DNA from: an uncultured delta proteobacterium
Lineage (GTDB): Bacteria; Desulfobacterota; Desulfobacteria; Desulfobacterales; UBA11574
Length of the DNA: 64,000 nucleotides
Assembly: GCA_963790095.1 (NCBI GenBank)
Contig: CAWBNO010000012.1
Coordinates: forward strand, 146,997-210,996
Direction: 5' to 3'
The position numbers and the translations under genes are program-made. This document shows, piece after piece, positions 9,749 to 64,000 of this stretch; position 1 is the stretch's first letter; every line of letters begins with the position of its first letter. The notes under the pieces are model-generated. The model ran no database searches, was not told the DNA's origin, and worked only from the letters and a program-made list of their open reading frames with translations.

Positions 9749-10207
9749 ATGACCGAAGACATCTATTCATATGAGGTAAAATGCCGTACATGCCGCACCA
9801 AGTTCAAGGTGCAGCTTTTCGAGAGCCACGAGAAGAATCTGTTTCTGGTGGATAAAAAAGATTGGTATTGCGAAAAATGCAAAAAAGAATATTTTGGCAA
9901 GCAGACGGAAAAACTTGTCAAGGCACATCAGGCCATCGGATTTTCCGAACTGAAAGGCACCCGGAAAATGGTGTCGTGGGCGGAGAAGATCCGGGGAGAT
10001 CTGATCAACAAGGTCGATTATCTGAAAAAAAGCCTCAAGTTTGATGACGAGGATCAACGGGAACTGTCTGAAAAGGCTTTTGACCTGTTTTTCAAGGAAT
10101 GGCAGGAAAAAACCCAGGCCAAATGGTGGATAGACCACCGGAGAATGACGGTCCGGGATATCTCAAAAAGGATTGAGGAAATATCTAAAACCATGCCGGC
10201 AAGATAG
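9749..10207 (+). CDS. hypothetical zinc-ribbon protein
   Basis: 152 aa with CRTCRT...CEKCKK (two CxxC pairs). No family recognised. Confidence 0.55.
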   Translation: MTEDIYSYEVKCRTCRTKFKVQLFESHEKNLFLVDKKDWYCEKCKKEYFGKQTEKLVKAHQAIGFSELKGTRKMVSWAEKIRGDLINKVDYLKKSLKFDDEDQRELSEKAFDLFFKEWQEKTQAKWWIDHRRMTVRDISKRIEEISKTMPAR

Positions 10208-49191: not shown

Positions 49192-52100
49192 ATGGATAAT
49201 TTTTTTGTAAGACGTCCAATTGTGGCCATGGTCATCGCCATTTTTATGGTAATCGTGGGGGTCGTATCGCTGAAAGGTCTTCCCACGGAGCAATATCCCA
49301 ATATCACACCACCGGTGGTGGAAGTTCGGGCCACCTATACCGGAGCAAATGCCGTCAGTGTGGAGCAGTCGGTGGCCACACCGCTGGAGCAGCAGATCAA
49401 TGGTGTGGACAATATGATCTATATGAAATCCATCAACGCAAATGACGGCACCATGACCGTTCAGGTGTCCTTTGAGATCGGCACCGATCCGGACATGAAC
49501 ACGGTTTTTACCCAAAACCGGGTTGCCGCTGCAACAGCGAAGCTCCCTGAGGAGGTCAAAAGATTAGGGGTGACCACAGAAAAATCCCTTCCGAATATAT
49601 TGATGCTGGTAACGCTAACATCAGAAGACGGCAGATATGACCAGAATTTCCTTGGAAACTATTCACTGATCAATATCAAAGATATTTTGGCCCGTATAAA
49701 AGGCATCGGTCGCGTGAACGTACTCGGAGCCAGTGATTATTCCATGCGCATATGGATAGAGCCCGACCGATTGGCCCACCTGGGTATCACGGTGCCCGAG
49801 ATCGTGAATGCCATCCGAGAGCAAAGTGTCATTGTTCCGGGCGGTAAATTCGGTGCTGAGCCCGCTCCTCCGGGGACGGAATTTACCTACACGGTCAGAT
49901 TGCCGGATCGTCTTCAATCTGAAAAAGAATTCAGTGAAATTGTCATCAGAACCACCGAGGGAGGGTCTCAGGTAAAGATCAAAGACATCGCACGTGTGGA
50001 ACTGGGCGTTGAGACTTACAACTGCATTTACTCGATTAAATGACAAAGCAGTGCGCCATGATCGCCCTGTATCAGGCGCCCGGTTCCAACGCCGTGAAAC
50101 TGGCCGAAGACATCAGAAAGACAATGGAACAGCTGTCTCAATCTTTTCCGGAGAGCATCCGATACGACATATCGCTGGATACCACGTTGGCCATCACGGC
50201 AGGCATCGATGAAATCATCGAGACACTCTTTATCGCCCTGGCGTTGGTTATTCTGGTGGTTTTCATCTTTATCCAGGACTGGCGGGCGGCCTTAATTCCC
50301 ACCATCGCCATCCCCGTTTCTCTGGTCGGTGCGTTTATTGTATTTCCATTGATCGGTTTCACCGTCAATGTCCTCTCGCTTCTGGGGCTGGTCCTGGCCA
50401 TCGGTATTGTTGTTGACGATGCCATTGTGGTGGTGGAGGCCGTCCAGGTTAATATTGAAAATGGTATGAATCCACAAGAGGCCACCATCCATGCCATGAA
50501 TGAAGTCACCGCGCCGGTCATTGCAACCACACTGGTTTTGGTGGCGGTGTTTATCCCGGTGGCCGTCATGGGAGGAATAACGGGAAGATTGTATCAACAG
50601 TTTGCCATTACGGTTGCCGTTTCGGTGGTTTTCTCATCTATTAATGCTTTAACCTTAAGTCCCGCCCTGTGCTCTCTGCTGCTTCGAAAGCAGAAACCGT
50701 ACGGCGGTCCTTTGGGTATGTTCTTTCGTCTTTTTAACAAAGCCTTTGACAGATCCACCAAGACATATATGGGGTTTACCCGTATTGTAACCGGCAAAAT
50801 AGTTAGGGGATTGATATTTATCCTTGTCGTGACCATTGGCATGGGTTTTATAGGGAAAAAAGTTCCCGGCGGATTTATGCCCGAAGAAGACATGGGGTAT
50901 CTTATGGTAAACATTCAATTGCCGGATGCCGCATCCCTGCAACGATCCGACACGGTTGCCAAAAAAGTCGAAAAAATTATAAAAAAATACGATGAAGTGG
51001 AATACATTACCACAGTCACCGGATACAGTCTGCTCTCAGGGAGCATGTCATCCAATGCCGGTTTTATTTTTGTTTCCCTTAAGGATTGGGGTGAACGGGA
51101 GAAAACCGCAAAGGACATCGTTAGACTATTAAATGTAAATTTTCATTTGGCCATTAATGAAGCGCAGGTGTTTGCCTTTGGCCCACCGGCAATCCCCGGA
51201 TTGGGGAGTGGTTCCGGATTTACGATGATGATTCAGGACAAAGGGGGAAATACACCGGATTATCTGGCCAAACACACGGTTAACTTTGTTCAGGCTGCCA
51301 TGAAACGGCCTGAAATCGGTGGTATATTTACAACGTTTCGAGCAACCGTTCCCCAGCGATACATGGAAATCGACAGGGATAAAGTCCTGAAAGCGGGGAT
51401 TTCCCTAAATGATATTTATACCACCGTCGGCGCCTTTCTGGGCGGTTCCTATGTAAATGATTTCAACAGATTCGGAAGGCTTTACAAAGCCTATATTCAG
51501 GCAGAACCCAAGTATAGGCAAAATGAAAAACAGATAAACCTTTTTTTTGTTAAAAATAAAGAGAACAAAAGCGTTCCTTTAGCGGCATTTGTCGATATCA
51601 AAGAAATCGTCGGGCCGGATTATACCAATCGATTTAATTTGTACAGAGCCATAGAGCTCAGTGGGGGGCCGGCGCCGGATATACTTCGGTCCAGGCCCTT
51701 GATGCCCTTGAAGAATTGGCTGCAGAAGTTCTTCCGGGGGATATGGGCTTTGCGTGGAGCAATATGTCGTACCAGGAAAAGAAGGCTTCCGGAACGGGTG
51801 CCATTGTTTTCGCGTTTTCATTGTTGTTCGTATTTCTTATTCTCGCCGCCCAATATGAAAGCTGGTCCTTGCCCTTTAGTATCCTGCTGGGGACACCCTT
51901 TGCAATCTTTGGTGCATTCATCGCATTGTTTGTTTCCCGACAGTTCAGCCAAAGCTATGAACTCAATGTTTTTGCCCAGATCGCACTGGTGATGCTCATC
52001 GCCATGGCGGCCAAAAATGCCATTCTGATCGTCGAGTTTGCCAAGCTGGAATTTGACAAAGGCCTTTCTTTGTTCGATGCGGCCATCAAAGCTGCACAGC

Positions 52101-52330
52101 TGCGATTCAGACCCATATTGATGACGGCGTTTTCTTTTATACTCGGTGTTCTACCGCTGGTGGTCGCTTCCGGTGCCGGGTCCGAAGCGAGAGTGGTTAT
52201 GGGCATGGCATTGCTGGGCGGAATGTCTATTGCGACGCTGTTAGGTGTTTTCTTTTATCCCATGCTGTTTGTTTTCATCGGCAAAATCGCCAAATATGAA
52301 GCAGAAACGAGATCTTCAATTGCAACCTGA
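49192..52330 (+). pseudogene. RND (HAE1/AcrB-type) inner-membrane permease, interrupted by three frame changes
   Basis: The protein is spread over ORFs 49192..50043, 49994..50212 (short middle piece AFTRLNDKAV), 50040..51992 and 51716..52330. Breaks lie near 50021, near 50054, and in the G6 run at 51663-51668. The parts join into a colinear AcrB-like sequence. Confidence 0.8.
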
Positions 52331-54891: not shown

Positions 54892-54968
54892 CCAGTGACC
54901 AATGACAAATGACCAATGACCGGTAACCAGTAACCAGTGACCAGTGTCCAATGACAAATGACCCATGA
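54892..54968. repeat. heptamer tandem array, 11 units, consensus CCARTGA
   Basis: ccagtga ccaatga caaatga ccaatga ccggtaa ccagtaa ccagtga ccagtgt ccaatga caaatga cccatga. The last unit contains the ATG of ORF 54965. Confidence 0.85.
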
Positions 54969-56061
54969 AACGCAGAGCTTTTATACATAAAATGTTTCTT
55001 ACTTTACAAGGGATGCTGTTGATGCATTTTGCTGACCCTCGGGTATTGTTGGGGGCTTTTGGGGAAATGGACGGTGAAACACTCCATTATCGCCCCTTGA
55101 ACGGCCGAAGCCTCAGGGACATGGCCCTGGGAAAGGAACATCACGGCTCTGGCGCCTTTAACAATCCCATCGGCGCTTCCCGAAGGGGAAGATTTTTTCA
55201 GCTTCTGAAATGGAAGCTCAGCCAAAACAGTTTTGGCCCTTTTCTCAAAGATCAGCCCACCCAACCGATCGCCATCGACTGGGAACCGATCCGGGTGCAT
55301 CAAGGGGTATCCATCACGTTTCTGAAACATGCCAGCGTCTTGATCAAGGACGTGGACAGATATCTCCTCGTGGATCCCGTGTTTTCGGATATATTCGGGT
55401 TTGTCGAGGATTTCTCACCGTTCACATTTAGCCCCCGCCAGATTCCGGAACCGGATCACGTTCTCATCACCCACGGGCATTATGATCACCTGGACAAGCC
55501 TTCGTTGGCGACTTTGGGAAAGATACCCATGTGATCAGCCCCTTAGGGTATGACAGCGTGTTCAGGGATTTGGGCATGATGAATCGGACCCGGCTGGACT
55601 GGTACGATATGTTTCGCGACGGCGATCGTTCCGTAACATTTTTGCCCAGCAATCACTGGACCATGCGAAATCCGGTGCGGGGTCCCAACCGGTCTCTCTG
55701 GGGCGGATACATCATCGAAACTTCCGTCGGCCGCACCATTTACGTCACCGGAGATTCGGGATACTTTGACGGATTCACAGAGATCGGTGGGGATTTCGAC
55801 ATCGATCTTGCCATTATCAATCTTGGCGCCTATGAGCCCCGGTGGTTCATGGCCCCCAGCCATATGAACCCCCGGGAAACCGTTCAGGCGTTTAAAGAAC
55901 TCAATGCCCGAAAATTGATGATCGTTCACTGGGGGACCTTTCGTCTGGGGGACGAGCCGGTGCATTTCCCGCCTGTGGACATTAAAAAAGAATTAAAGAA
56001 AGAAGGCCTCCTCCATCGCCTTGTGGACATCCGGCATGGCGAAACTATTTTTGTGAACTGA
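54965..56061 (+). pseudogene. MBL-fold metallo-hydrolase (NAPE-PLD/UlaG-like), single frame break
   Basis: HVLITHGHYDHLD motif in ORF 54965..55534. The continuation GKDTHVISPLGYD... is in the -1 frame (ORF 55531..56061). The break is at TTGGGAAAGAT, about 55514-55521. Confidence 0.7.
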
Positions 56062-56110
56062 GGCATATACGGCAATACGCCAATCTAAAAAAATCATACA
56101 AGGGAACATC

Positions 56111-56738
56111 ATGTCCGAACTCAAAATACTTGAAATATTTTCTGACTATATCTGACCCTGGTGCTATTTCATTACCGGGGGTATTGAAAGACTACAAAAA
56201 GAATTTAAAATCGGCATTCGATGGACGGCATTCCCCCTCCATCCGGAAACCCCGGAGGATGGGACAGACACTGGCAACGCTGTTTGCGGGTCGTAATATA
56301 GACATCGATCAAATGATGATCCATCTAAAACAGGTTGCACACGGATTGGGGTTGCCTTTCGGCCAACGGACCATGACCTACAACAGTCGTCTGGCACAGG
56401 AGTTGGGTAAATGGGCGGAATCTGAAGGTCAAGGTCATGAATTCCACAACGCCGTGTTTCGAGCGTATTTCGCAAATGGTCTAAACATCGGGAAGCCCCA
56501 CGTCCTCGTGAAGGTGGCTGAATCCGTCAACCTGAATGGAAAAGATGCCATGAACACTATTCAATCCAGGACCTGTAGAGAATCCGTTGATCTGGACTGG
56601 AGGCGATCTTACGAAAAAAGCGTGACGGCAGTTCCGACCTTTGTATTCAACGGTCAAGTTTTGGTGGGTGCCCAAAAATACGAAGCATTGGAAAAGACCC
56701 TGCTGTCGAATAACGTGGAAAGACGAAACCCAAAATAG
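56111..56738 (+). CDS. DsbA/FrnE-like thiol:disulfide oxidoreductase. In-frame TGA (56153-56155) at the first position of the CxxC motif suggests a selenoprotein. The frame is also broken near 56264.
   Basis: From ATG 56111: MSELKILEIFSDYI-TGA-PWCYFITGGIERLQKEFKIGIRWTAFPLHPETPEDG. Skipping one base gives QTLATLFAGRNIDIDQ...VTAVPTFVFNGQVLVGAQ (ORF 56130..56738 frame). The family fold is complete only if TGA is decoded and the frame is corrected. Confidence 0.6.
56156..56180 (+). promoter_or_regulatory. candidate bacterial SECIS hairpin
   Basis: It starts right after the TGA. CCCUGGU (56156-56162) pairs with ACCGGGG (56174-56180): 7 bp including one G-U. The 11-nt apical loop starts with G. 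Confidence 0.4.
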
Positions 56739-56915
56739 TTTCCATCCATAAATGGCCCTTTTTGCCCGGATCTGCGTTCTCCGCGGGTTTCCGGCTGCGG
56801 TATACAGGGAGTATGCCTCACCGAAAACCCTTGTGCGGCCTTGAGCCGGACAAAAATTGCTCATTTATGAATTGGAAACGCAACGTGCCCATTTAACAAT
56901 TATGGATGGAAACTA
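56737..56915. mobile_element. possible MITE-like element, or a structured 3' region
   Basis: Perfect 16-bp inverted termini TAGTTTCCATCCATAA (56737-56752) and TTATGGATGGAAACTA (56900-56915). No ORF. Single copy in the window. Confidence 0.3.
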
Positions 56916-56953
56916 ACTACTTAACTTAGTCCTGAAACCGGGTCCTCCCCTAC

Positions 56954-57196
56954 GTGGCGAGATCTAAAATGGGGCCCGGATTATTTTCTATGGAGAACAT
57001 GATTATGGGATCGAGAGAAATCAACGAAATCGTTGTTACAGACATCAGGATGTCGTTTTCGTCAATGGTTGTTTTTATGGTGAAATGGGCCATTGCCACG
57101 ATTCCGGCGCTGATCATCTTAACGGTGGTCGGATCGTTACTGTTGGGGATTTTAAGGATAATTTTCGGCGGGTTCCACCCGGGGATGCGGTTCTAA
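56954..57196 (+). CDS. hypothetical small membrane protein
   Basis: 80-aa ORF with two hydrophobic segments. The true start is probably an internal Met. No family recognised. Confidence 0.3.
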   Translation: MARSKMGPGLFSMENMIMGSREINEIVVTDIRMSFSSMVVFMVKWAIATIPALIILTVVGSLLLGILRIIFGGFHPGMRF

Positions 57197-57375
57197 AATA
57201 GAGAGTCCAAGGATTCCAAGGGTCCAGGATTCAAGGGTTTGTTTTCTAAAGACTTTATCAGCGCCTTGGCTCAAGCGTATTCCTTATCCCTTTCCCTTCG
57301 TCCTCTGACTTCTGATCTCTGGCTTCTGCTCTCTGCCCCATGCCCTTTGCTCTCTGCCCCCTCTTAAACGGGCGT

Positions 57376-57750
57376 TCAATGGAGTGACAGCAAATAAGAC
57401 CTGAGATTTGCCTTCTTGCCCTCCAGGCCGATTTTCCTTTGGATATTTTTTTTGTGGGTGTCGACGGTTCTTGGGGATATATTCATGATTTTTGCTATTT
57501 TTTTGCTGGTATTCCCGTGCTTTGTCATGTTCGCAATCTGAATTTCTGTGGGGGTCAGGTTTAAATATACCAGTGACAATTTTCGGGTAAACGGAGAGAT
57601 GATTTCGTAGAGCGCAAGACTCATCTCCTGTCTTGCTGAATCTTCAATATTCGAAGTGGTCAGGCTGTAGGTGCTTTGAAGCAATATGGCCGAGAATATT
57701 ACGACGATTATTCCAATAAAGAGGATCAATTTTGATTTTATACTCTTCAT
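57376..57750 (-). CDS. membrane-anchored LuxR/GerE-type HTH regulator (no receiver or ligand domain)
   Basis: N-terminal TM (LILFIGIIVVIFSAILL). C-terminal LTPTEIQIANMTKHGNTSKKIAKIMNISPRTVDTHKKNIQRKIGL. Confidence 0.7.
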   Translation of the reverse strand: MKSIKSKLILFIGIIVVIFSAILLQSTYSLTTSNIEDSARQEMSLALYEIISPFTRKLSLVYLNLTPTEIQIANMTKHGNTSKKIAKIMNISPRTVDTHKKNIQRKIGLEGKKANLRSYLLSLH

Positions 57751-58358
57751 GTTTCACCTTAAATTTAAAATTAAAATTGGTTTTTCTCCCAATTCATTGC
57801 GAGAAAGCGTTTTAGGATCACCATATCCTTTGGAGATAATTCTAACTTTAAAGAGCGGACGAACTGCAACAGCGAGCTTCGATTTTTTATGAGGACTCCG
57901 GATTAAAAATGTTTTTACGTGATGCCTCTATTTAACATCAGGGCTTTTATGAGCAGGGCCTTAAACTGTTCGAAGATATCCTTTTTGAAAAATCGGGATA
58001 AAAAAATATTACATTATTTTTTAAAAAATGATAACAAAAGTCTTCGAGTCGCTGTTAAGAAATTTGTTTTGATTCGGACCCCGTCGGATTCGGTTGCTTT
58101 TTTTCCGCAGGGTTCCGGGGATATTCGGATAGTCATTGGGTGGCGGCAACGTCTAACGCTTCAGACGATGAGGTGATTTGTCCCCTCTTTTTTTACCGCC
58201 GTTTACGTTGGAGCTTGGGCAATATTTTTTTTGGTACGATAACCAAAAAATAACAAACTGTAAAGATATTATAGCACATCATCAAAAACCTCTGTTGTGT
58301 GGCTTCACAACAGTTGAGGCCGCCGCCTGGGAAGGGGTGTGTAAAAGGAGGAAATAAA

Positions 58359-58856
58359 ATGGCCCTTATGTTTAATTCAGATGAGATTCTTGAAATGGCG
58401 ATTCGCATCGAGGCCAACGGGTCCGCCTTTTATCGAAAGGCTGCGGGCATGCAGTCCGATGCCGAAAACAAAAAGTTCCTGGAAGGTCTGGCCGCCATGG
58501 AAGATCGGCATCAGAAAACATTTGCCGAGATGCGCAAAACATTGACCGAAGCGGACAAGGGCGGGAAGGTGTTCGATCCGTATAACGAGGAGTCCCAATA
58601 CCTCGCTTCCATGGCCGACACCCTCGGGGGCGAAGGCAGTCCGACAGTGGCAGATGCGCTCACCGGCAATGAAACCCTCGAGGATATACTCAGAACCGCC
58701 TTGGGACTCGAAAAGGACGCCATCCTGTTCTACCTGGGACTCAAGGACATGGTACCGGCCAGGTACGGCCAGGAGAAGATCGATGAGATAATCAGGGAAG
58801 AGAAGCGCCACGTGGCCCAGCTTGCGGGCCTGCTCAAGAAGGTAAAGGATGCATAG
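58359..58856 (+). CDS. erythrin-like diiron four-helix-bundle protein (ferritin-like/rubrerythrin family, no rubredoxin domain)
   Basis: AAGGAGG SD. E...ExxH twice (RIEANG..MEDRH; LEKDA..EEKRH). Confidence 0.75.
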   Translation: MALMFNSDEILEMAIRIEANGSAFYRKAAGMQSDAENKKFLEGLAAMEDRHQKTFAEMRKTLTEADKGGKVFDPYNEESQYLASMADTLGGEGSPTVADALTGNETLEDILRTALGLEKDAILFYLGLKDMVPARYGQEKIDEIIREEKRHVAQLAGLLKKVKDA

Positions 58857-59175
58857 CCCTGACCCCAGGACAGAATTTTATAGGGCCATAGGGGCTAAAA
58901 ATCAGACCTGCTCGATGACATTTAACCGATCGATATTAAATGGATAAATCCCTTAATGCCGCCCGGTGCTCGCTCTTAGACACCGACATCCGGTGAGGAC
59001 GTCCCGATCTCCAATTTCGGCAGGTTCTGTGAAAAGCTAAAGGCAGAACGTAAGGGCAGGAGTCCTGCAACCGGGGATGAATTGATGCTTGAACCGAGGA
59101 AGGTTGTTATGTTTAGCTGTTCAGGAAAATTGAGGGATAGGATCAACCCCAAACAAGACGAAAGGTTCAACCGAA

Positions 59176-59625
59176 ATGCTGTCAAAAATTAACAATGAGG
59201 TTCTATCCCATGGGCCCGAAGCAGTTCTCCCACAGAATCTGAGCAAGAAATGGCTAAAGATACTACAAAAAATGGCAGAAGACTTCATAGGTTCTAATTA
59301 TGATCTTGATGAATGTAAGAAGCCGGAGGATATTGCGGATCCAATCCTATCCGTCTGTGTTTCAGAACTGTTAATATCCCAATATAAAGACAAAACCAAT
59401 ATGTCCATCGAGGAAGTGTTAGAAAAGATCACAATCTATTCCATATCGTTAATTATTGAGGCAGTGGACAGGGAGTCCAATATCGGTATAGATAAGCCCA
59501 CACTTGAAGATATTTTTAATTGGGACAGAATTGTTAGAATGAAGAAGATGAATCCCGAGTTTGTTGAAGCGCTTGAAAAAGCATGTATCATGCAGATTCC
59601 GGAACAAGCTTCTTCTAAAGAATGA
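59176..59625 (+). CDS. hypothetical protein
   Basis: 149-aa ORF with GAAAGG ahead of the ATG. No family recognised. Confidence 0.5.
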   Translation: MLSKINNEVLSHGPEAVLPQNLSKKWLKILQKMAEDFIGSNYDLDECKKPEDIADPILSVCVSELLISQYKDKTNMSIEEVLEKITIYSISLIIEAVDRESNIGIDKPTLEDIFNWDRIVRMKKMNPEFVEALEKACIMQIPEQASSKE

Positions 59626-59963
59626 AGCTCACCGTATCCTAAAAAACAGAATTCTGAATAGACCCGCCGACATCTTCGATTTTGTATAAAGGACTAAATC
59701 AGCAATAAAAAGCTCCTGGGGGAGGCGAATCCCCAAGAGCTATAGAGAAGGTATTGCATTATGTGGAACCCCACAATGCAAATTCATTCAATATCCGAAA
59801 ATGTGATATGTCAATAGGTAGAATACCTCATTTTTGTGGGGAAATATCCCAAACCTATAATGAGCAACCCAGAGAGGCTTGCCCTGGAAAATAAAAAGCC
59901 CCCAAGAACCGGCCATTGGCTCTCAGGGGCTACCATAAGGAGGCATTAAGGGAGGGGGAAACC

Positions 59964-60041
59964 TTACTCTAAGAAAAAAGCAATCAAACAGCAAGATCCC
60001 ACCCAGATTACAGTGATCCCAAAAAGAATTAAATCTGTCAT
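59964..60041 (-). CDS. possible 25-aa hydrophobic peptide (MTDLILFGITVIWVGSCCLIAFFLE)
   Basis: AAAGGTG about 7 nt upstream. A GC hairpin (AGCCCC...GGGGCT) plus T-run follows about 40 nt downstream on the minus strand. Below the ORF-track cutoff. Confidence 0.25.
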   Translation of the reverse strand: MTDLILFGITVIWVGSCCLIAFFLE

Positions 60042-60156
60042 AATATTCACCTTTGTATGAAATAATAGATGCAAAAACCATGCAAGATATTAAAGATATG
60101 AAAAATGACAGAAATTCAATAAGTTAGATAAAATGCCTGGATTGTTGAGCAAAAGA

Positions 60157-60177
60157 ATTTGACAATATTTGTCAAAT
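60157..60177. promoter_or_regulatory. perfect palindromic operator-like site ATTTGACAA-TAT-TTGTCAAAT
   Basis: 9-bp arms with a 3-bp spacer. A third TTTGACA half-site lies at 60190-60196. Confidence 0.35.
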
Positions 60178-60256
60178 ATCCGACCAAAGTTTGACAGGGT
60201 TTCCAGATTTGATGAGCATTGAAGACGAAGAAAATATTGGGTAAAGGGGAAACTTT

Positions 60257-60280
60257 TTCTCACACAGATTCTCACACAGA
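60257..60280. repeat. tandem 12-mer TTCTCACACAGA x2
   Basis: Exact duplication read directly from the sequence. Confidence 0.85.
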
Positions 60281-60613
60281 ATTTTATCTAATCATTCCAG
60301 CAACCACCACCATGATATAATAGATAATTGTTTGAATTATTTCACAGTACTATGTAAATAATGTAATAGGTTTTATGTAATTTGCCTCTCAATTACATAG
60401 TTTTTTGATGGATTACCATACCTGATTTTTACCCAAAAATTACATAACCAACTGATATTCAATATTTTTCATTATAACCACTGGAATTGCATGTTTTTTG
60501 CATCAAAAGAATGGGTGGATAAGTTTATTCAAAGTATAAAAAGAACAAATCTCAACTTATTGTATAGAACAAAACTCGATTAACTCGACACAATAATAAT
60601 TCAACGATATACT

Positions 60614-61405
60614 ATGAAATCAGCCTTAATCCTGATTGTTGCTGTGGTTCTTTGGTGGCTCCCATTGGGATGGGCTCAGGCTGCTGATTTAAAATATGTT
60701 AGAGCCGGGGAACATGGATCTTTTACAAGAGTTGTTTTTGAATTTCAAGGCATGGTTCGATCAGCGGCGCCTACCATAATAGGCAGAGGAAATTTTAACG
60801 TAATTTTTTTCGATATGACCACAGCCTTACCCCGCCAGATATTGAACAAAACAACTAAAGGGATTCAATCCGTTGAACTTATTCAGGAAGAATCTCGTTT
60901 GACAGCCAACATCACGCTATCCTTTCCCTATTTTAAGCTAAAAACCTTTTCTCTTTCAAATCCCGACCGCTTTATCATTGACGCATACAGGATGTCTTCA
61001 CCACCAAAAACAAGTGCGTTGGAAGAATCATTGCAAGCAGAACCTTTAGATGATGCACCCGATATAGAGGAACCTCTGCAGGCTAAGTCCGATACAGAGG
61101 AACCTTTGCATGCTGAGCCCGATAAAGTTGTATTGAATGAGCTTGTGGGAACAGATCAGACGATTCAGACGAAAAAATCCTCAATAGACGGGAAGTACAA
61201 TGTTCAGATATACCTATTGACCCTATTAAATATTCTCACACTTATTATCGTTGCATTGCTAAGTTTAAATCTATTGAGGAAAAGACCCAGGATTAATTCA
61301 GAGCGTCTTAGTGAGGAGTTAGAGTCTCTGGCGACAACTGATGAACGTGTTGCCACCATAGATGCTTTGATTAAAAAAAAATTGGAAAAACTTAATCAAT
61401 CTTGA
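60614..61405 (+). CDS. AMIN-domain membrane protein
   Basis: Signal peptide, then LKYVRAGEHGSFTRVVFEFQG (AMIN-type start as in AmiC/PilQ N-termini). Acidic EEPLQA/EEPLHA repeats, one TM and a short cytoplasmic tail. Confidence 0.7.
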   Translation: MKSALILIVAVVLWWLPLGWAQAADLKYVRAGEHGSFTRVVFEFQGMVRSAAPTIIGRGNFNVIFFDMTTALPRQILNKTTKGIQSVELIQEESRLTANITLSFPYFKLKTFSLSNPDRFIIDAYRMSSPPKTSALEESLQAEPLDDAPDIEEPLQAKSDTEEPLHAEPDKVVLNELVGTDQTIQTKKSSIDGKYNVQIYLLTLLNILTLIIVALLSLNLLRKRPRINSERLSEELESLATTDERVATIDALIKKKLEKLNQS

Positions 61406-61419
61406 CCGCTGGGGATAAT

Positions 61420-61731
61420 ATGAGTGAAGACATCCACACAGAAATCGTTATCGGCCTTTCAGACGAAGAAAAAGATGACCTTGAGGAAATGATAAAGACA
61501 TTTAGAGAGGAACAATCTGAAGGACCGCCTATTTCAAGTATCGAAGATGTTCAGAAACAGATTGGATCCATTAGTGAAAACCTTGCCCAGCTTGGTGACA
61601 TGTTGCTGAAATTCGATGAGAAAATGAAATCATTTTATGAAATAATTCATCTCTATTTTAAAAAAGACGAGATACTTAACCGGCGCATAGACGACATCAT
61701 AAAAATCATGAAAAGTCAAAGAAACCCTTAA
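61420..61731 (+). CDS. hypothetical acidic coiled-coil protein
   Basis: GGGGA SD ahead of ATG 61420 (the ORF track starts at TTG 61402). No family recognised. Confidence 0.5.
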   Translation: MSEDIHTEIVIGLSDEEKDDLEEMIKTFREEQSEGPPISSIEDVQKQIGSISENLAQLGDMLLKFDEKMKSFYEIIHLYFKKDEILNRRIDDIIKIMKSQRNP

Positions 61732-61745
61732 TTGGGAGGTGAATA

Positions 61746-62915
61746 ATGAACGACCGGATCGACAAACAGAACAGCATCGTCAATCGCATTGTTGATGGCT
61801 CTGTCAAGATCGATTCAGTCGCAGAGTTTGAAAGCCTACTCAAAGCTTTTCCAAATAATCCGTGGCTCCATAGAGCTTTTGCCGACCTTTTGAAACGAGA
61901 AAAATCGTTTTATGTTGCCGCCGATACATACAGGACATCCGCTGAACTTTTTATTGAAGCAGATATGACGTTGCAGTCTATTGTTTCCAAAATCCATGAA
62001 TGGCGGATTTTTAAGCCTTCCTATCAGGAAAGGGAGACCTATTATTCAGCCCTTCAAAAATCCAAATCCAAAGAAACAGGGATTCAGCGCTTTTTCATAA
62101 AGATGACGCATCCTGAAATCATCGCATTTATGAGTGAGTTGGTGCCCCGGCATTTTCCTCCGGGCAGCATAATGAAAAAATTCGGTGATGAAGAAAAGAA
62201 CCTCTATTTTGTTGTGTCCGGTGCTTTGGAAGAAACTATCTACCATCGTACAGAAAAAGGCGGAAGGGTCCAAAAAAAAACAACGAAAAATTTGGTGGAA
62301 AACGACTTTTTTGGTGAAATATATCCATTTGAGGAGGAAAACGTTTCCAGATCAACGATCGAAACAATTACTCGCGTTGAATTTGCAGAAATATCTAAAT
62401 CAAGTTTGATGACGATTTGCAGAAAATATCCTAATGTTCAGCCTCTTGTCGAAAGACTGTACAAGAGCCGTTCGGAATCCGATGAAAAAGGATTATCAAG
62501 AACAGTTCGAAAAAGAGTCAGGTATCAACTTCCGACCCAGGTGAATCTTAAAATTTTTCCAGATGAACCAGACAAAGCTCCTTTAGATGTAGACGGATTT
62601 ACAGAAGATATATCATTAGATGGGGCCCGTGTTGTTTTGAGTAAGGATTTCGAGTTCGGTCATTTGGACACCTTGGCTGGTAAAAATGTTAAAATTCGGA
62701 TATTTTTACCGGCTGCATTTGTGAGTCTTTCTATTTTGGGCACGACTGCCTGGAGCAAATCGATTTCTCTCCCAGGAAAAACAACTGCAGTGGTGGGCAT
62801 CCAATTCAAAGATATGAACAATACGGATCGCAGGTTGTTGCAGAGCTACCATTATGGAACCGAAGGTGAGCAAAATCTGATCTGGAGCTTATGGGATTCG
62901 CTCATGGAGAAATAG
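61746..62915 (+). CDS. cyclic-nucleotide-binding-domain plus PilZ-domain protein (predicted c-di-GMP receptor)
   Basis: GGGAGGTG SD. cNMP-like beta-roll (LYFVVSGALEE...FFGEI). PilZ motifs RKRVR (RxxxR) and DISLDG (DxSxxG). Confidence 0.7.
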   Translation: MNDRIDKQNSIVNRIVDGSVKIDSVAEFESLLKAFPNNPWLHRAFADLLKREKSFYVAADTYRTSAELFIEADMTLQSIVSKIHEWRIFKPSYQERETYYSALQKSKSKETGIQRFFIKMTHPEIIAFMSELVPRHFPPGSIMKKFGDEEKNLYFVVSGALEETIYHRTEKGGRVQKKTTKNLVENDFFGEIYPFEEENVSRSTIETITRVEFAEISKSSLMTICRKYPNVQPLVERLYKSRSESDEKGLSRTVRKRVRYQLPTQVNLKIFPDEPDKAPLDVDGFTEDISLDGARVVLSKDFEFGHLDTLAGKNVKIRIFLPAAFVSLSILGTTAWSKSISLPGKTTAVVGIQFKDMNNTDRRLLQSYHYGTEGEQNLIWSLWDSLMEK

Positions 62916-62945
62916 ATCTTATTTTTTATATTGACAAGGGGTCAA

Positions 62946-63875
62946 ATGAGAGAATGGCAGGACACTGAAATGGAATCAACCCCAACAATATGGGCTGTAG
63001 GCGGAGGAAAAGGTGGGGTTGGAAAGAGTGTCGTAAGTACGATCCTGGCCTTTTGGCTGGCCCGGAAGGGAAAACGGACTGTACTTATAGACGCCGATTT
63101 AGGAGGTGCCAACCTCCATACTCTTTTGGGGATCAAAAGTCCGCCTCGAACTCTAATTGATTTTATTAACAGAAAATTTGGGTCATTAGAAGAAATTTGT
63201 ATCGATACCGAGGCGAAAAACCTTCGCTTAATAAGTGGCTCCAGTGAAGTTCTTTCATTGGCGAATCCCCATTTTAGCCAAAAGGTAAAGCTCATCAATC
63301 ACTTTACCAGATTGGATGCTGACTATGTGGTGATTGATCTTGGGGCTGGGACTTCTTTTAATGTTCTGGATTTCTTTCTTTCTGCCCATGAAAAAATTAT
63401 GGTCCTTACTCCGGAGCCCACATCCATTCAGAATGCCTATATCTTTGTTCGTAATGCAGTTTACCGAAGGCTGAGCCGGCTTTCCAGTAAAAATCCATCC
63501 CTTCAAACCCTTGTAAAAATTGCCATGGATCCCAAAAATGAACTCCAAGTCCGAACAGTCAAAGAACTTTTACAGTTCATTCAGGAGTCAGGCGGAAAAG
63601 ATGTAGCAGAGCCTATTGAAAAAGAGATCGGAGCAATACGGCCGGCAGTGATTACCAATATGGTCAGGGATAACAAAGAAAAAAATGCAGGTCGTATTGT
63701 TCAGATTGTTGCTGAAAAGTATTTAATGATTCAATCCACAAATCTGGGCACCGTGTCTCATGATGGGCAGATTTTTTCAATGGTTTCCGATATGGTCTCT
63801 TTGTTAAAGCTGGACCAGTCAAGCCATGCTTTCACCAACATTAATGCAATTGTAACAAAGCTGTTGGGAGATTGA
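62946..63875 (+). CDS. MinD/ParA(FlhG)-type P-loop ATPase
   Basis: Deviant Walker A AVGGGKGGVGKS and Walker B YVVIDLGAG. AAGGGG SD ahead of ATG 62946 (the track starts at TTG 62931). Confidence 0.8.
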   Translation: MREWQDTEMESTPTIWAVGGGKGGVGKSVVSTILAFWLARKGKRTVLIDADLGGANLHTLLGIKSPPRTLIDFINRKFGSLEEICIDTEAKNLRLISGSSEVLSLANPHFSQKVKLINHFTRLDADYVVIDLGAGTSFNVLDFFLSAHEKIMVLTPEPTSIQNAYIFVRNAVYRRLSRLSSKNPSLQTLVKIAMDPKNELQVRTVKELLQFIQESGGKDVAEPIEKEIGAIRPAVITNMVRDNKEKNAGRIVQIVAEKYLMIQSTNLGTVSHDGQIFSMVSDMVSLLKLDQSSHAFTNINAIVTKLLGD

Positions 63876-64000
63876 GGGCACACACTTCTCATTCCATACT
63901 TTTTTGGGGTGATCTCGAATATAATTAATATGCATTCATGGAGCATCCTCGAGTTAAAGGACAGTAAACCGATTCCTTGATATCGCATTGAATATAACAT

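Follow-up and report, generated by a model that had tools for sequence, protein, structure and literature searches.

Near the end of the window, a 64,000-nucleotide (nt) stretch of contig CAWBNO010000012.1 from an uncultured delta proteobacterium, four intact open reading frames (ORFs) follow one another on the + strand at positions 60614-63875 and form one operon. We refer to these genes as g1, g2, g3 and g4, and we propose that together they encode a MinD/FlhG-type switch module that is gated by cyclic di-GMP (c-di-GMP) and tethered to the cell envelope, a reading to which we assign a probability of roughly 0.5. More speculatively, and with the odds leaning against it, g3 and g4 could represent the first PilZ receptor that directly gates an ATPase of the MinD/ParA family and, with g2 as adaptor and g1 as a landmark anchored on peptidoglycan through AMIN, a new class of c-di-GMP-controlled organiser for envelope machines, probably those with an ATPase of the type II secretion system (T2SS) or type IV pilus (T4P) kind. 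MinD/ParA-type ATPases are a general bacterial means of placing large assemblies, and c-di-GMP generally signals the change from motile to attached life or back. Where the two are known to be linked, the link either is indirect (FleN-FleQ) or depends on a different type of sensor (BcsE).

What could be observed of this module is its gene structure, its domains, the conservation of its motifs, the co-conservation of its genes and the statistics of its neighbourhoods. When each species was represented by a single genome, a scan anchored on g3 gave 32 loci, every one of them in a metagenome-assembled genome (MAG) of an uncultured, Desulfobacterales-type organism, and a metagenome scan anchored on g4 added 80 further loci; all ORFs of these loci, which are designated here by L and a number, were clustered. 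Co-occurrence was counted over the g4-anchored loci that had enough upstream DNA to hold the gene in question. By this count, g3 lay immediately upstream of g4 in every case (56/56 loci), g2 was found upstream of g4 in 39/45 loci and g1 in 33/37, and the four genes named in the original prediction thus proved to be a co-conserved unit. The order g1-g2-g3-g4 was kept down to identities of 40% for g1, 56% for g2 and 58% for g3, with g4 at least 72% identical. Such an order, recurring in dozens of independent contigs, is beyond chance. One sublineage (L023, L041-43 and L058-60) has kept g3-g4 and lacks both g1 and g2; g3-g4 is the invariant core of the module, and from the side of the ATPase the pair is inseparable. 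If our reading is true, the fixed coupling of a PilZ protein with a MinD/FlhG-type ATPase at all 56 of these loci would offer a direct and experimentally tractable route from a second messenger to spatial organisation.

The ATPase gene, g4 (62946-63875, + strand), encodes a P-loop protein of 309 residues when read from its ATG, and an alternative TTG start at 62931 would add five more. The protein is matched by the Pfam ParA, CbiA and AAA_31 families, and its motifs can be read directly on the + strand: a deviant Walker A, GGGKGGVGKS (residues 19-28; 63000-63029), a Walker A', DADLGGANLH (63090-63119), and a Walker B, DLGAG (63336-63350). K22, which is the signature lysine, as well as K27, D49, D51 and D131 were invariant in 16 homologs. 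The nearest solved relatives were FleN (5j1j, E = 3e-28) and FlhG (4rz2, E = 6e-21), followed by MinD at about 1e-12, and on these sequence comparisons g4 is placed in the MinD/FlhG branch and not in the Soj/ParA branch. All four curated equivalog models gave scores below their thresholds. The MinD equivalog TIGR01968 gave 69.9 bits against a threshold of 212.9 and aligned with residues 22-169 only, and scores were likewise low for the BcsQ model (19.6 versus 157.85 bits), the CpaE-like model (40.6 versus 154.45 bits) and the ParA partition model (28.1 versus 180 bits). By these membership tests, the cluster lies outside MinD, FlhG-in-context, BcsQ, TadZ and ParA. All of its parts except g2 come from known superfamilies, but we did not find their combination described: no PilZ and MinD/ParA system with the composition of g1-g4 was found in the literature searched, in agreement with the statement in the original prediction that no such system could be named.

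The kinship of g4 with FleN and FlhG raises the alternative that the cluster is a divergent system for flagellar number or placement, in which g4 would act as FlhG/FleN and g3 as a YcgR-like c-di-GMP brake or regulator. FlhG and FleN are not only the closest solved relatives of g4 but also share with it the deviant Walker A with the signature lysine and the Walker A' pattern DxDLGxAN, and FleN acts with the c-di-GMP-binding regulator FleQ. Many g4 homologs carry the Joint Genome Institute (JGI) name "flagellar biosynthesis protein FlhG". We nevertheless regard a flagellar role as unlikely, as no flhF, fliA or other flagellar family was recognised in about 100 neighbourhoods of related loci; this and the other neighbour negatives below refer to the recurrent and selected families of these neighbourhoods, which were scanned with Pfam. 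Compared with FleN, g4 carries an insertion of ~50 residues (about 170-220) after the switch region, and the two align well over the N-terminal 160 residues only, the C-terminal half aligning poorly. The partners also differ, being here a PilZ protein, a novel 103-residue protein and an AMIN membrane protein, and to our knowledge a peptidoglycan-anchored AMIN partner belongs to no FlhF/FlhG system. The routine metagenome label "FlhG" for the homologs of g4 is probably wrong. Two further points speak for the flagellar alternative. Control of flagella is common among PilZ proteins (PMC8203827), and acidic motifs in g2 and in the tail of g1 recall the short acidic EIDAL motif of FliM that is bound by FlhG (bioRxiv 10.1101/2022.04.21.489128). 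The recruitment of FlhG by this peptide is also a precedent for the module that we propose.

The partner of g4 in the invariant core, g3 (61746-62915, + strand), encodes a protein of 389 residues, and the mean column identity of its family is 78%. From Pfam matches, homolog conservation and an alignment with CRP, g3 consists of a helical N-terminal domain (residues 1 to ~120), a beta-roll resembling cyclic nucleoside monophosphate (cNMP)-binding domains (residues 135-228; 62148-62429, + strand) and a PilZ domain (residues 255-368; 62508-62849, + strand). The PilZ match (PF07238) reached 34.5 bits against a cut-off of 22.5 (E = 3e-8), and its two motifs can be read directly on the + strand as RKRVR (residues 255-259; 62508-62522) and DISLDG (residues 288-293; 62607-62624). 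R255, R259, S290 and G293 of this domain were invariant in 24 homologs.

The beta-roll was also above its Pfam cut-off (cNMP_binding, PF00027; 44.1 versus 27.5 bits; E = 2e-11), and it aligned with CRP residues 8-132, a span that includes the cyclic AMP (cAMP) pocket. Within the phosphate-binding cassette, G190-E191 are conserved and R202-S203 are present in the window protein, but the position of R202 is occupied by Q or H in most orthologs, and for this reason the binding of a cyclic mononucleotide by g3 appears doubtful from the sequence. The same evidence bears on the alternative that cAMP or cyclic GMP (cGMP) is the main signal of g3, with the PilZ domain secondary or degenerate. This would agree with the Pfam score, with the alignment over the cAMP pocket of CRP and with the retention of the G-E and R-S pairs in the window protein. 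We consider it improbable all the same, given that the cassette arginine is so often replaced while the PilZ motifs are invariant, and given that the enzymes found near related loci (see below) act on c-di-GMP and are not adenylate or guanylate cyclases.

The first gene of the operon, g1 (60614-61405, + strand), encodes a bitopic envelope protein of 263 residues. Its architecture, drawn from 23 homologs and an AlphaFold model, comprises a signal peptide (residues 1-23, with cleavage between AQA and A), an AMIN-fold domain, an acidic Pro/Glu linker, one transmembrane (TM) helix and a cytoplasmic helix. With g1 itself, the AMIN hidden Markov models (HMMs) PF11741 and PF24837 fell just under their cut-offs (19.7 versus 20.5 and 20.1 versus 27 bits), and 17 of the 23 homologs had an AMIN or AMIN-like HMM match at E<=0.01 (best 9.6e-7). 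The N-terminal domain (residues 24-127; 60683-60994, + strand) was modelled with confidence as a beta-sandwich (predicted local distance difference test (pLDDT) 82-94, about 90). Its top Foldseek match in the PDB was Escherichia coli AmiC (4bin; E = 3.8e-4; root-mean-square deviation 2.1 Å over ~109 residues), and the AMIN/B2 domains of PilQ (4av2, 4aqz and 3jc8) came next. As modelled, then, this domain has the AMIN fold.

The linker of g1 (isoelectric point (pI) 4.2) contains acidic repeats, EESLQA/EEPLQA/EEPLHA, that can be read directly at residues 137-170 (61022-61123, + strand); they are predicted to be periplasmic and disordered (pLDDT <50), and their length varies among homologs. The TM helix (residues 195-221; 61196-61276, + strand; 197-222 in the model) is followed by RKRPR, in keeping with the positive-inside rule, and g1 in this orientation would have its AMIN domain and repeats in the periplasm, leaving only the last 40 residues in the cytoplasm. 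This cytoplasmic tail (residues 222-263; 61277-61402, + strand) is conserved among homologs and modelled as a helix at 229-262. Its consensus, SLxTxDESIAAIDAxIKxELKK, includes an IDAL-like stretch, and L239, T241, D243, E244, D250, I253 and K259 are nearly invariant in the 23 homologs. We regard the tail as a candidate docking site for g2, g3 or g4.

Between g1 and g3 lies g2 (61420-61731, + strand), an acidic helical protein of 103 residues (pI 4.6) when read from its ATG; an alternative TTG start at 61402 would add six residues. It has a conserved N-terminal motif, GLSDEEKDDLE, and a long, helical C-terminal half. No significant relative of g2 was found in Pfam, NCBIfam or the PDB, and searches of the PDB and Pfam with a g2 profile gave only chance-level matches. 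An exhaustive phmmer search yielded 76 cluster representatives among 1.84 billion, a family that is without any annotation. Some g2 homologs are longer (170-360 residues); these were considered as g1-g2 fusions and rejected, since cytoplasmic acidic 'ALEEL' repeats precede the same domain. Likewise, a 108-residue ORF upstream of g3 in L041 was considered as a diverged g2 and is not one.

The domain calls in the original prediction all held up against these data. They include the deviant Walker A of a MinD/ParA/FlhG ATPase in g4, the PilZ domain with RxxxR and DxSxxG motifs in g3, and in g1 the AMIN domain, the acidic repeats, the single TM helix and the cytoplasmic tail. Its description of g3 as cNMP-binding stands for the fold and not for the binding of a nucleotide, R202 being variable.

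In the mechanism that we propose, g4 would work as a switch that depends on the bound nucleotide, with ATP causing it to dimerise by way of its signature lysine. g3 would serve as its dedicated sensor, with the PilZ domain binding c-di-GMP and so altering the engagement of g4 by g3, and the cNMP-like beta-roll would probably be a regulatory or dimerisation domain rather than a site for cAMP or cGMP. The small acidic g2 could be an adaptor, a stabiliser or an activator of the ATPase, like MinE, BcsR or the N-terminus of FliM. As the envelope anchor, g1 would hold peptidoglycan through its periplasmic AMIN domain and present its 40-residue cytoplasmic helix as the docking site. The cargo would be encoded outside the operon. 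Where the cluster looks compositionally native, the likeliest client would be a GAF-MshEN-T2SSE ATPase (T2SS/T4P-type) and its machine; in the lineage of the window, the cluster may have been relocated to different surroundings and have acquired a further MinD-like paralog. We infer all protein-protein contacts, the binding of ligand and the identity of the cargo, and a role in positioning or assembly is suggested by family membership. The four proteins are small and either soluble or bitopic, and they suit in vitro work and heterologous hosts, even though the organisms they come from are uncultured.

The neighbourhoods of related loci fall into two classes by the identity of g4 to that of the window, one at 70-82% (37 informative loci) and one at >=84%, which is the class of the window (18 informative loci). 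A GAF-MshEN-T2SSE (MshE-like) ATPase was present within 10 kb in 31/37 loci of the 70-82% class, along with Maf in 24 and HD-GYP in 15, whereas the corresponding numbers in the window's class were 0, 0 and 4 of 18. Flanks in the 70-82% class are stable, and consist of the cluster, a Maf-YggS-QueH-M48/TPR block and the convergent GAF-MshEN-T2SSE ATPase in three relative orders, usually with a Rec-Rec-HD-GYP regulator after the ATPase. Elsewhere in the window's class, the contexts include a small PilZ gene, a VpsT-like regulator, PAS-GGDEF-EAL and ComEC, and in L039 the cluster sits between gspA/gspB-like genes (upstream) and gspL/M/C-like genes (downstream). Small PilZ genes were found downstream of g4 in L018, L048, L053, L054, L080 and L107 and upstream of g3 in L023 and L060, PAS-GGDEF-EAL neighbours in L020 and L040, the VpsT-like regulator in L056 and a PP2C-PilZ protein in L124. 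In addition, a more distant g4 homolog (43-44% identity; L120, L122 and L123) is followed by a zinc-ribbon-like protein with RxxxR and NxSxxG motifs, whose PilZ HMM score of 18.7 bits is below the cut-off of 22.5; on its motifs this is a possible further pairing of an ATPase with a PilZ protein.

The neighbours of related loci are thus rich in c-di-GMP signalling genes, and the HD-GYP, GGDEF-EAL, small PilZ and VpsT-like genes among them strengthen the second-messenger link that had been drawn from the cluster alone. None of the recurrent neighbours is in the window, and scans of the window proteins confirmed the earlier statement that it holds none of the usual partners of such an ATPase. The original prediction had also raised the prospect that the neighbourhood continues past the window into a known system. 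This is partly the case, in view of the MshE-like ATPase (31/37), the gsp genes of L039 and the second MinD-like paralog, but a complete pilus, secretion, flagellar or cellulose system does not adjoin the cluster with any consistency, and in the window's class none does so (0/18 loci).

In the closest relatives, L005 and L007, the DNA is 92-93% identical to the window up to position 64000, and a second MinD-like gene starts ~40 nt past the position corresponding to its end (L005 3852-3992; L007 12295-12408), so the operon may have five genes in this genome as well. Aligned over 285 residues, a span that includes the extra segment of g4, this paralog and g4 share 35% identity. The paralog also follows g4 in L047 (2452-3381), L049 and L051, and in L056 it is located further downstream.

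We compared the module with other systems that pair an ATPase of this superfamily with dedicated partners. The closest precedent by function is BcsE-BcsR-BcsQ of E. coli-type cellulose secretion, where a MinD-superfamily ATPase (BcsQ) is combined with a tiny stabiliser of 7 kDa (BcsR) and with BcsE, which senses c-di-GMP and binds BcsQ, in the service of an envelope-spanning machine (PMC7439463). Sequence kinship to it is at the superfamily level only, however, as the BcsQ score indicates, the sensor here is PilZ-based instead of GIL/GGDEF-based, the AMIN anchor is without a Bcs counterpart, and no bcsA, bcsB or bcsZ is nearby in any locus examined. TadZ/CpaE is a MinD-family ATPase that places a T2SSE-powered pilus or secretion machine, and a T2SSE ATPase is the commonest neighbour in the 70-82% class, but unlike TadZ/CpaE, g4 lacks an N-terminal receiver-like domain, having 12 residues before its P-loop; it is far below the CpaE-like threshold, and no adjacent tad, cpa, pilin or platform genes were seen. 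The polar landmark proteins HubP/FimV resemble g1 in being bitopic: they bind peptidoglycan with a periplasmic domain, carry acidic repeats and use their cytoplasmic part to recruit ATPases of the ParA/MinD type (HubP-FlhG). In contrast to HubP/FimV, g1 has AMIN and not LysM, is far smaller, carries its repeats in a part predicted to be periplasmic and has a single cytoplasmic helix of ~40 residues, and no sequence similarity was found between them.

MinCDE, too, is built on an ATPase from this family and a small partner of ~90-100 residues; however, g2 is unrelated to MinE, and a C-terminal membrane-targeting helix is not evident in g4. A further alternative is that the cluster is a Min-like module for division or for the septal cell wall, with AMIN taking g1 to the septum and g4 regulating the division site or wall remodelling under c-di-GMP. 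In AmiC, whose fold g1 matches, AMIN is a septal-targeting domain. The MinD-family similarity of g4 would fit, and so would the adjacency of Maf and YggS, which are often near division genes, in 24/37 loci of the 70-82% class. On balance a division role seems to us rather unlikely. No minC- or minE-like gene was seen in the window or in the recurrent neighbour families of the ~100 loci, and g4 misses the MinD equivalog threshold. Moreover, the Maf-YggS-QueH-M48 block is found in 0/18 loci of the window's class, and the loss of the module in L124 and its foreign composition in higher-GC genomes, both described below, fit an accessory function better.

Several observations weigh against the c-di-GMP-gated, envelope-tethered switch that we favour. 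The MshE-like ATPase named as the likeliest client is found in 0/18 loci of the window's class and not in the window, and in one representative MshE-like ATPase a regular-expression search gave no match to the canonical 24-residue MshEN c-di-GMP motif. The C-terminus of g4 is weakly amphipathic, the hydrophobic moment of its last 11-residue windows being 0.37-0.47 with one basic residue, and it is without the basic residues of the MinD membrane-targeting helix. The AlphaFold model of g3, built on a 24-sequence alignment, had a pLDDT of 37 and was unusable. The resemblance to EIDAL of LSDEEKDDL in g2 and of A-I-D-A-L/M-I in the g1 tail is partial, and we treat it as a lead, not as evidence. Furthermore, 24 copies of g3 stand alone, with no g1, g2 or g4, and it follows from these free-standing copies that g3 can work without an adjacent g4. 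In a distance tree the solo copies group as a single clade, which lies within the linked copies as the sister of the window's subclade, and three MAGs have a linked and a solo copy together. Finally, in the complete 3.4-Mb Desulfobacterales genome CP070789.1 (L124, 9926-11803), g1 and g2 are kept while g3 breaks off at residue 187 and there is no g4, and this decay indicates that the module is dispensable.

We also noted some features around these exceptional copies. In L124, a 560-residue T2SSE ATPase and the PP2C-PilZ protein lie 3-8 kb downstream of the decayed cluster. The solo g3 genes of L001, L012, L014-L017, L019 and L022 are preceded by a conserved ORF of 77 residues that contains Cys (for example, L001 9670-9906) and includes the stretches …FATCLACKMMKDL…NCRSPQQEDSWCSLLHLVF…; this ORF was considered as a diverged g2 and found to be unrelated to it. 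In L003 (7364-9410), genes for a phage-type integrase and an IS91/Y2 transposase immediately precede a solo g3, whose protein is identical to that encoded by a copy elsewhere in the same sample, on a different contig.

The intergenic gaps of the operon, with g2 and g4 read from their ATG starts, are 14, 14 and 30 nt, so the tight spacing on one strand was seen correctly in the original prediction, as was the AT-richness that it had judged by eye. GC content is 0.409 in the cluster against 0.477 in the remaining window, and GC at third codon positions is 0.36-0.41 against 0.52-0.58 in 14 other window ORFs. In every genome compared the cluster has a GC content of 0.40-0.43, while that of the flanks ranges from 0.415 to 0.484 (window, L034, L075, L040 and L046). 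Because the flanks vary and the cluster does not, the cluster would pass as native where the genome is lower in GC but looks foreign in L040, L046 and the window, which is consistent with, though not proof of, lateral spread into the lineage of the window. The organisms with the module are uncultured sulfate-reducer relatives in the Desulfobacterales, and among them are MAGs that bear the label Eth-SRB2; Eth-SRB2 is a partner of archaea that oxidise ethane.

Composition of this kind would also be expected of a mobile accessory cassette whose ParA-like ATPase serves the partition or maintenance of DNA. In line with such a cassette, cluster GC is below that of the host DNA in the window, L040 and L046, flanks in the window's class are variable, repeats resembling miniature inverted-repeat transposable elements (MITEs) occur beside and inside the cluster, and the solo g3 of L003 adjoins an integrase and a transposase. 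We consider this explanation very improbable, however. The ParA partition model gave only ~28 of the 180 bits called for and g4 falls in the MinD/FlhG branch, the flanks showed no conspicuous ParB-like, relaxase or phage gene, g2 has no match to a ParB-like or DNA-binding family, and in the 70-82% class the cluster is in stable synteny with housekeeping genes.

One of these repeats lies in the window itself at 56728-56919. It is ~190 nt long, has terminal inverted repeats (GTTTCCATCCATAA...TTATGGATGGAAAC) and is of the MITE or repetitive extragenic palindromic (REP) type in appearance. No Rfam family matches it, and its fold is a long hairpin (-77.5 kcal/mol, z -5.9). In many relatives, intergenic DNA next to the cluster contains copies that are 75-95% identical, and in L077 and L090 a copy lies between g3 and g4 (9780-9970 in both); others are at L044 1763-1944, L087 10764-10905, L095 7268-7408 and L018 6325-6389. 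A second short conserved piece, at window 57200-57267, is 80-96% identical over 42-68 nt in L078, L016, L112 and L039.

The DNA directly before g1 is an AT-rich, non-coding leader of ~1 kb (59626-60613, assigned to no strand) with a GC content of 0.346. Similarity to related loci, as judged from blastn boundaries, reaches upstream to 60545. In a scan of the leader region, sigma-70 promoter-like and terminator-like matches were not above the shuffled expectation. A sigma-54 promoter was considered and rejected, with 33 matches against 28 expected and a site at 60487 that is without the GG, and an Rfam scan of 56000-64000 gave one match only, at chance level (E 0.45). A strong terminator-like hairpin (14 pairs, 8 of them G-C, then a T-run) is present on the - strand at 59897-59931, in the non-coding DNA upstream of g1, and no obvious minus-strand gene ends there.

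Further upstream, the window carries an RND efflux operon and genes for a metallo-beta-lactamase (MBL)-fold hydrolase and for DsbA-like, small LuxR-type and rubrerythrin-like proteins, as well as for an unassigned protein of 149 residues. The AcrB-type RND pump at 49192-52330 is in three ORFs that cover ACR_tran positions 2-272, 277-828 and 841-1020, which implies two frame disruptions; a pseudogene or assembly indels are possible. Similarly, the MBL-fold hydrolase at 54965-56061 is in two ORFs with a 4-nt overlap (Lactamase_B_2 positions 1-52 and 84-200), so that these 10 kb appear to contain another frameshift; the four genes of the cluster, by contrast, are intact.

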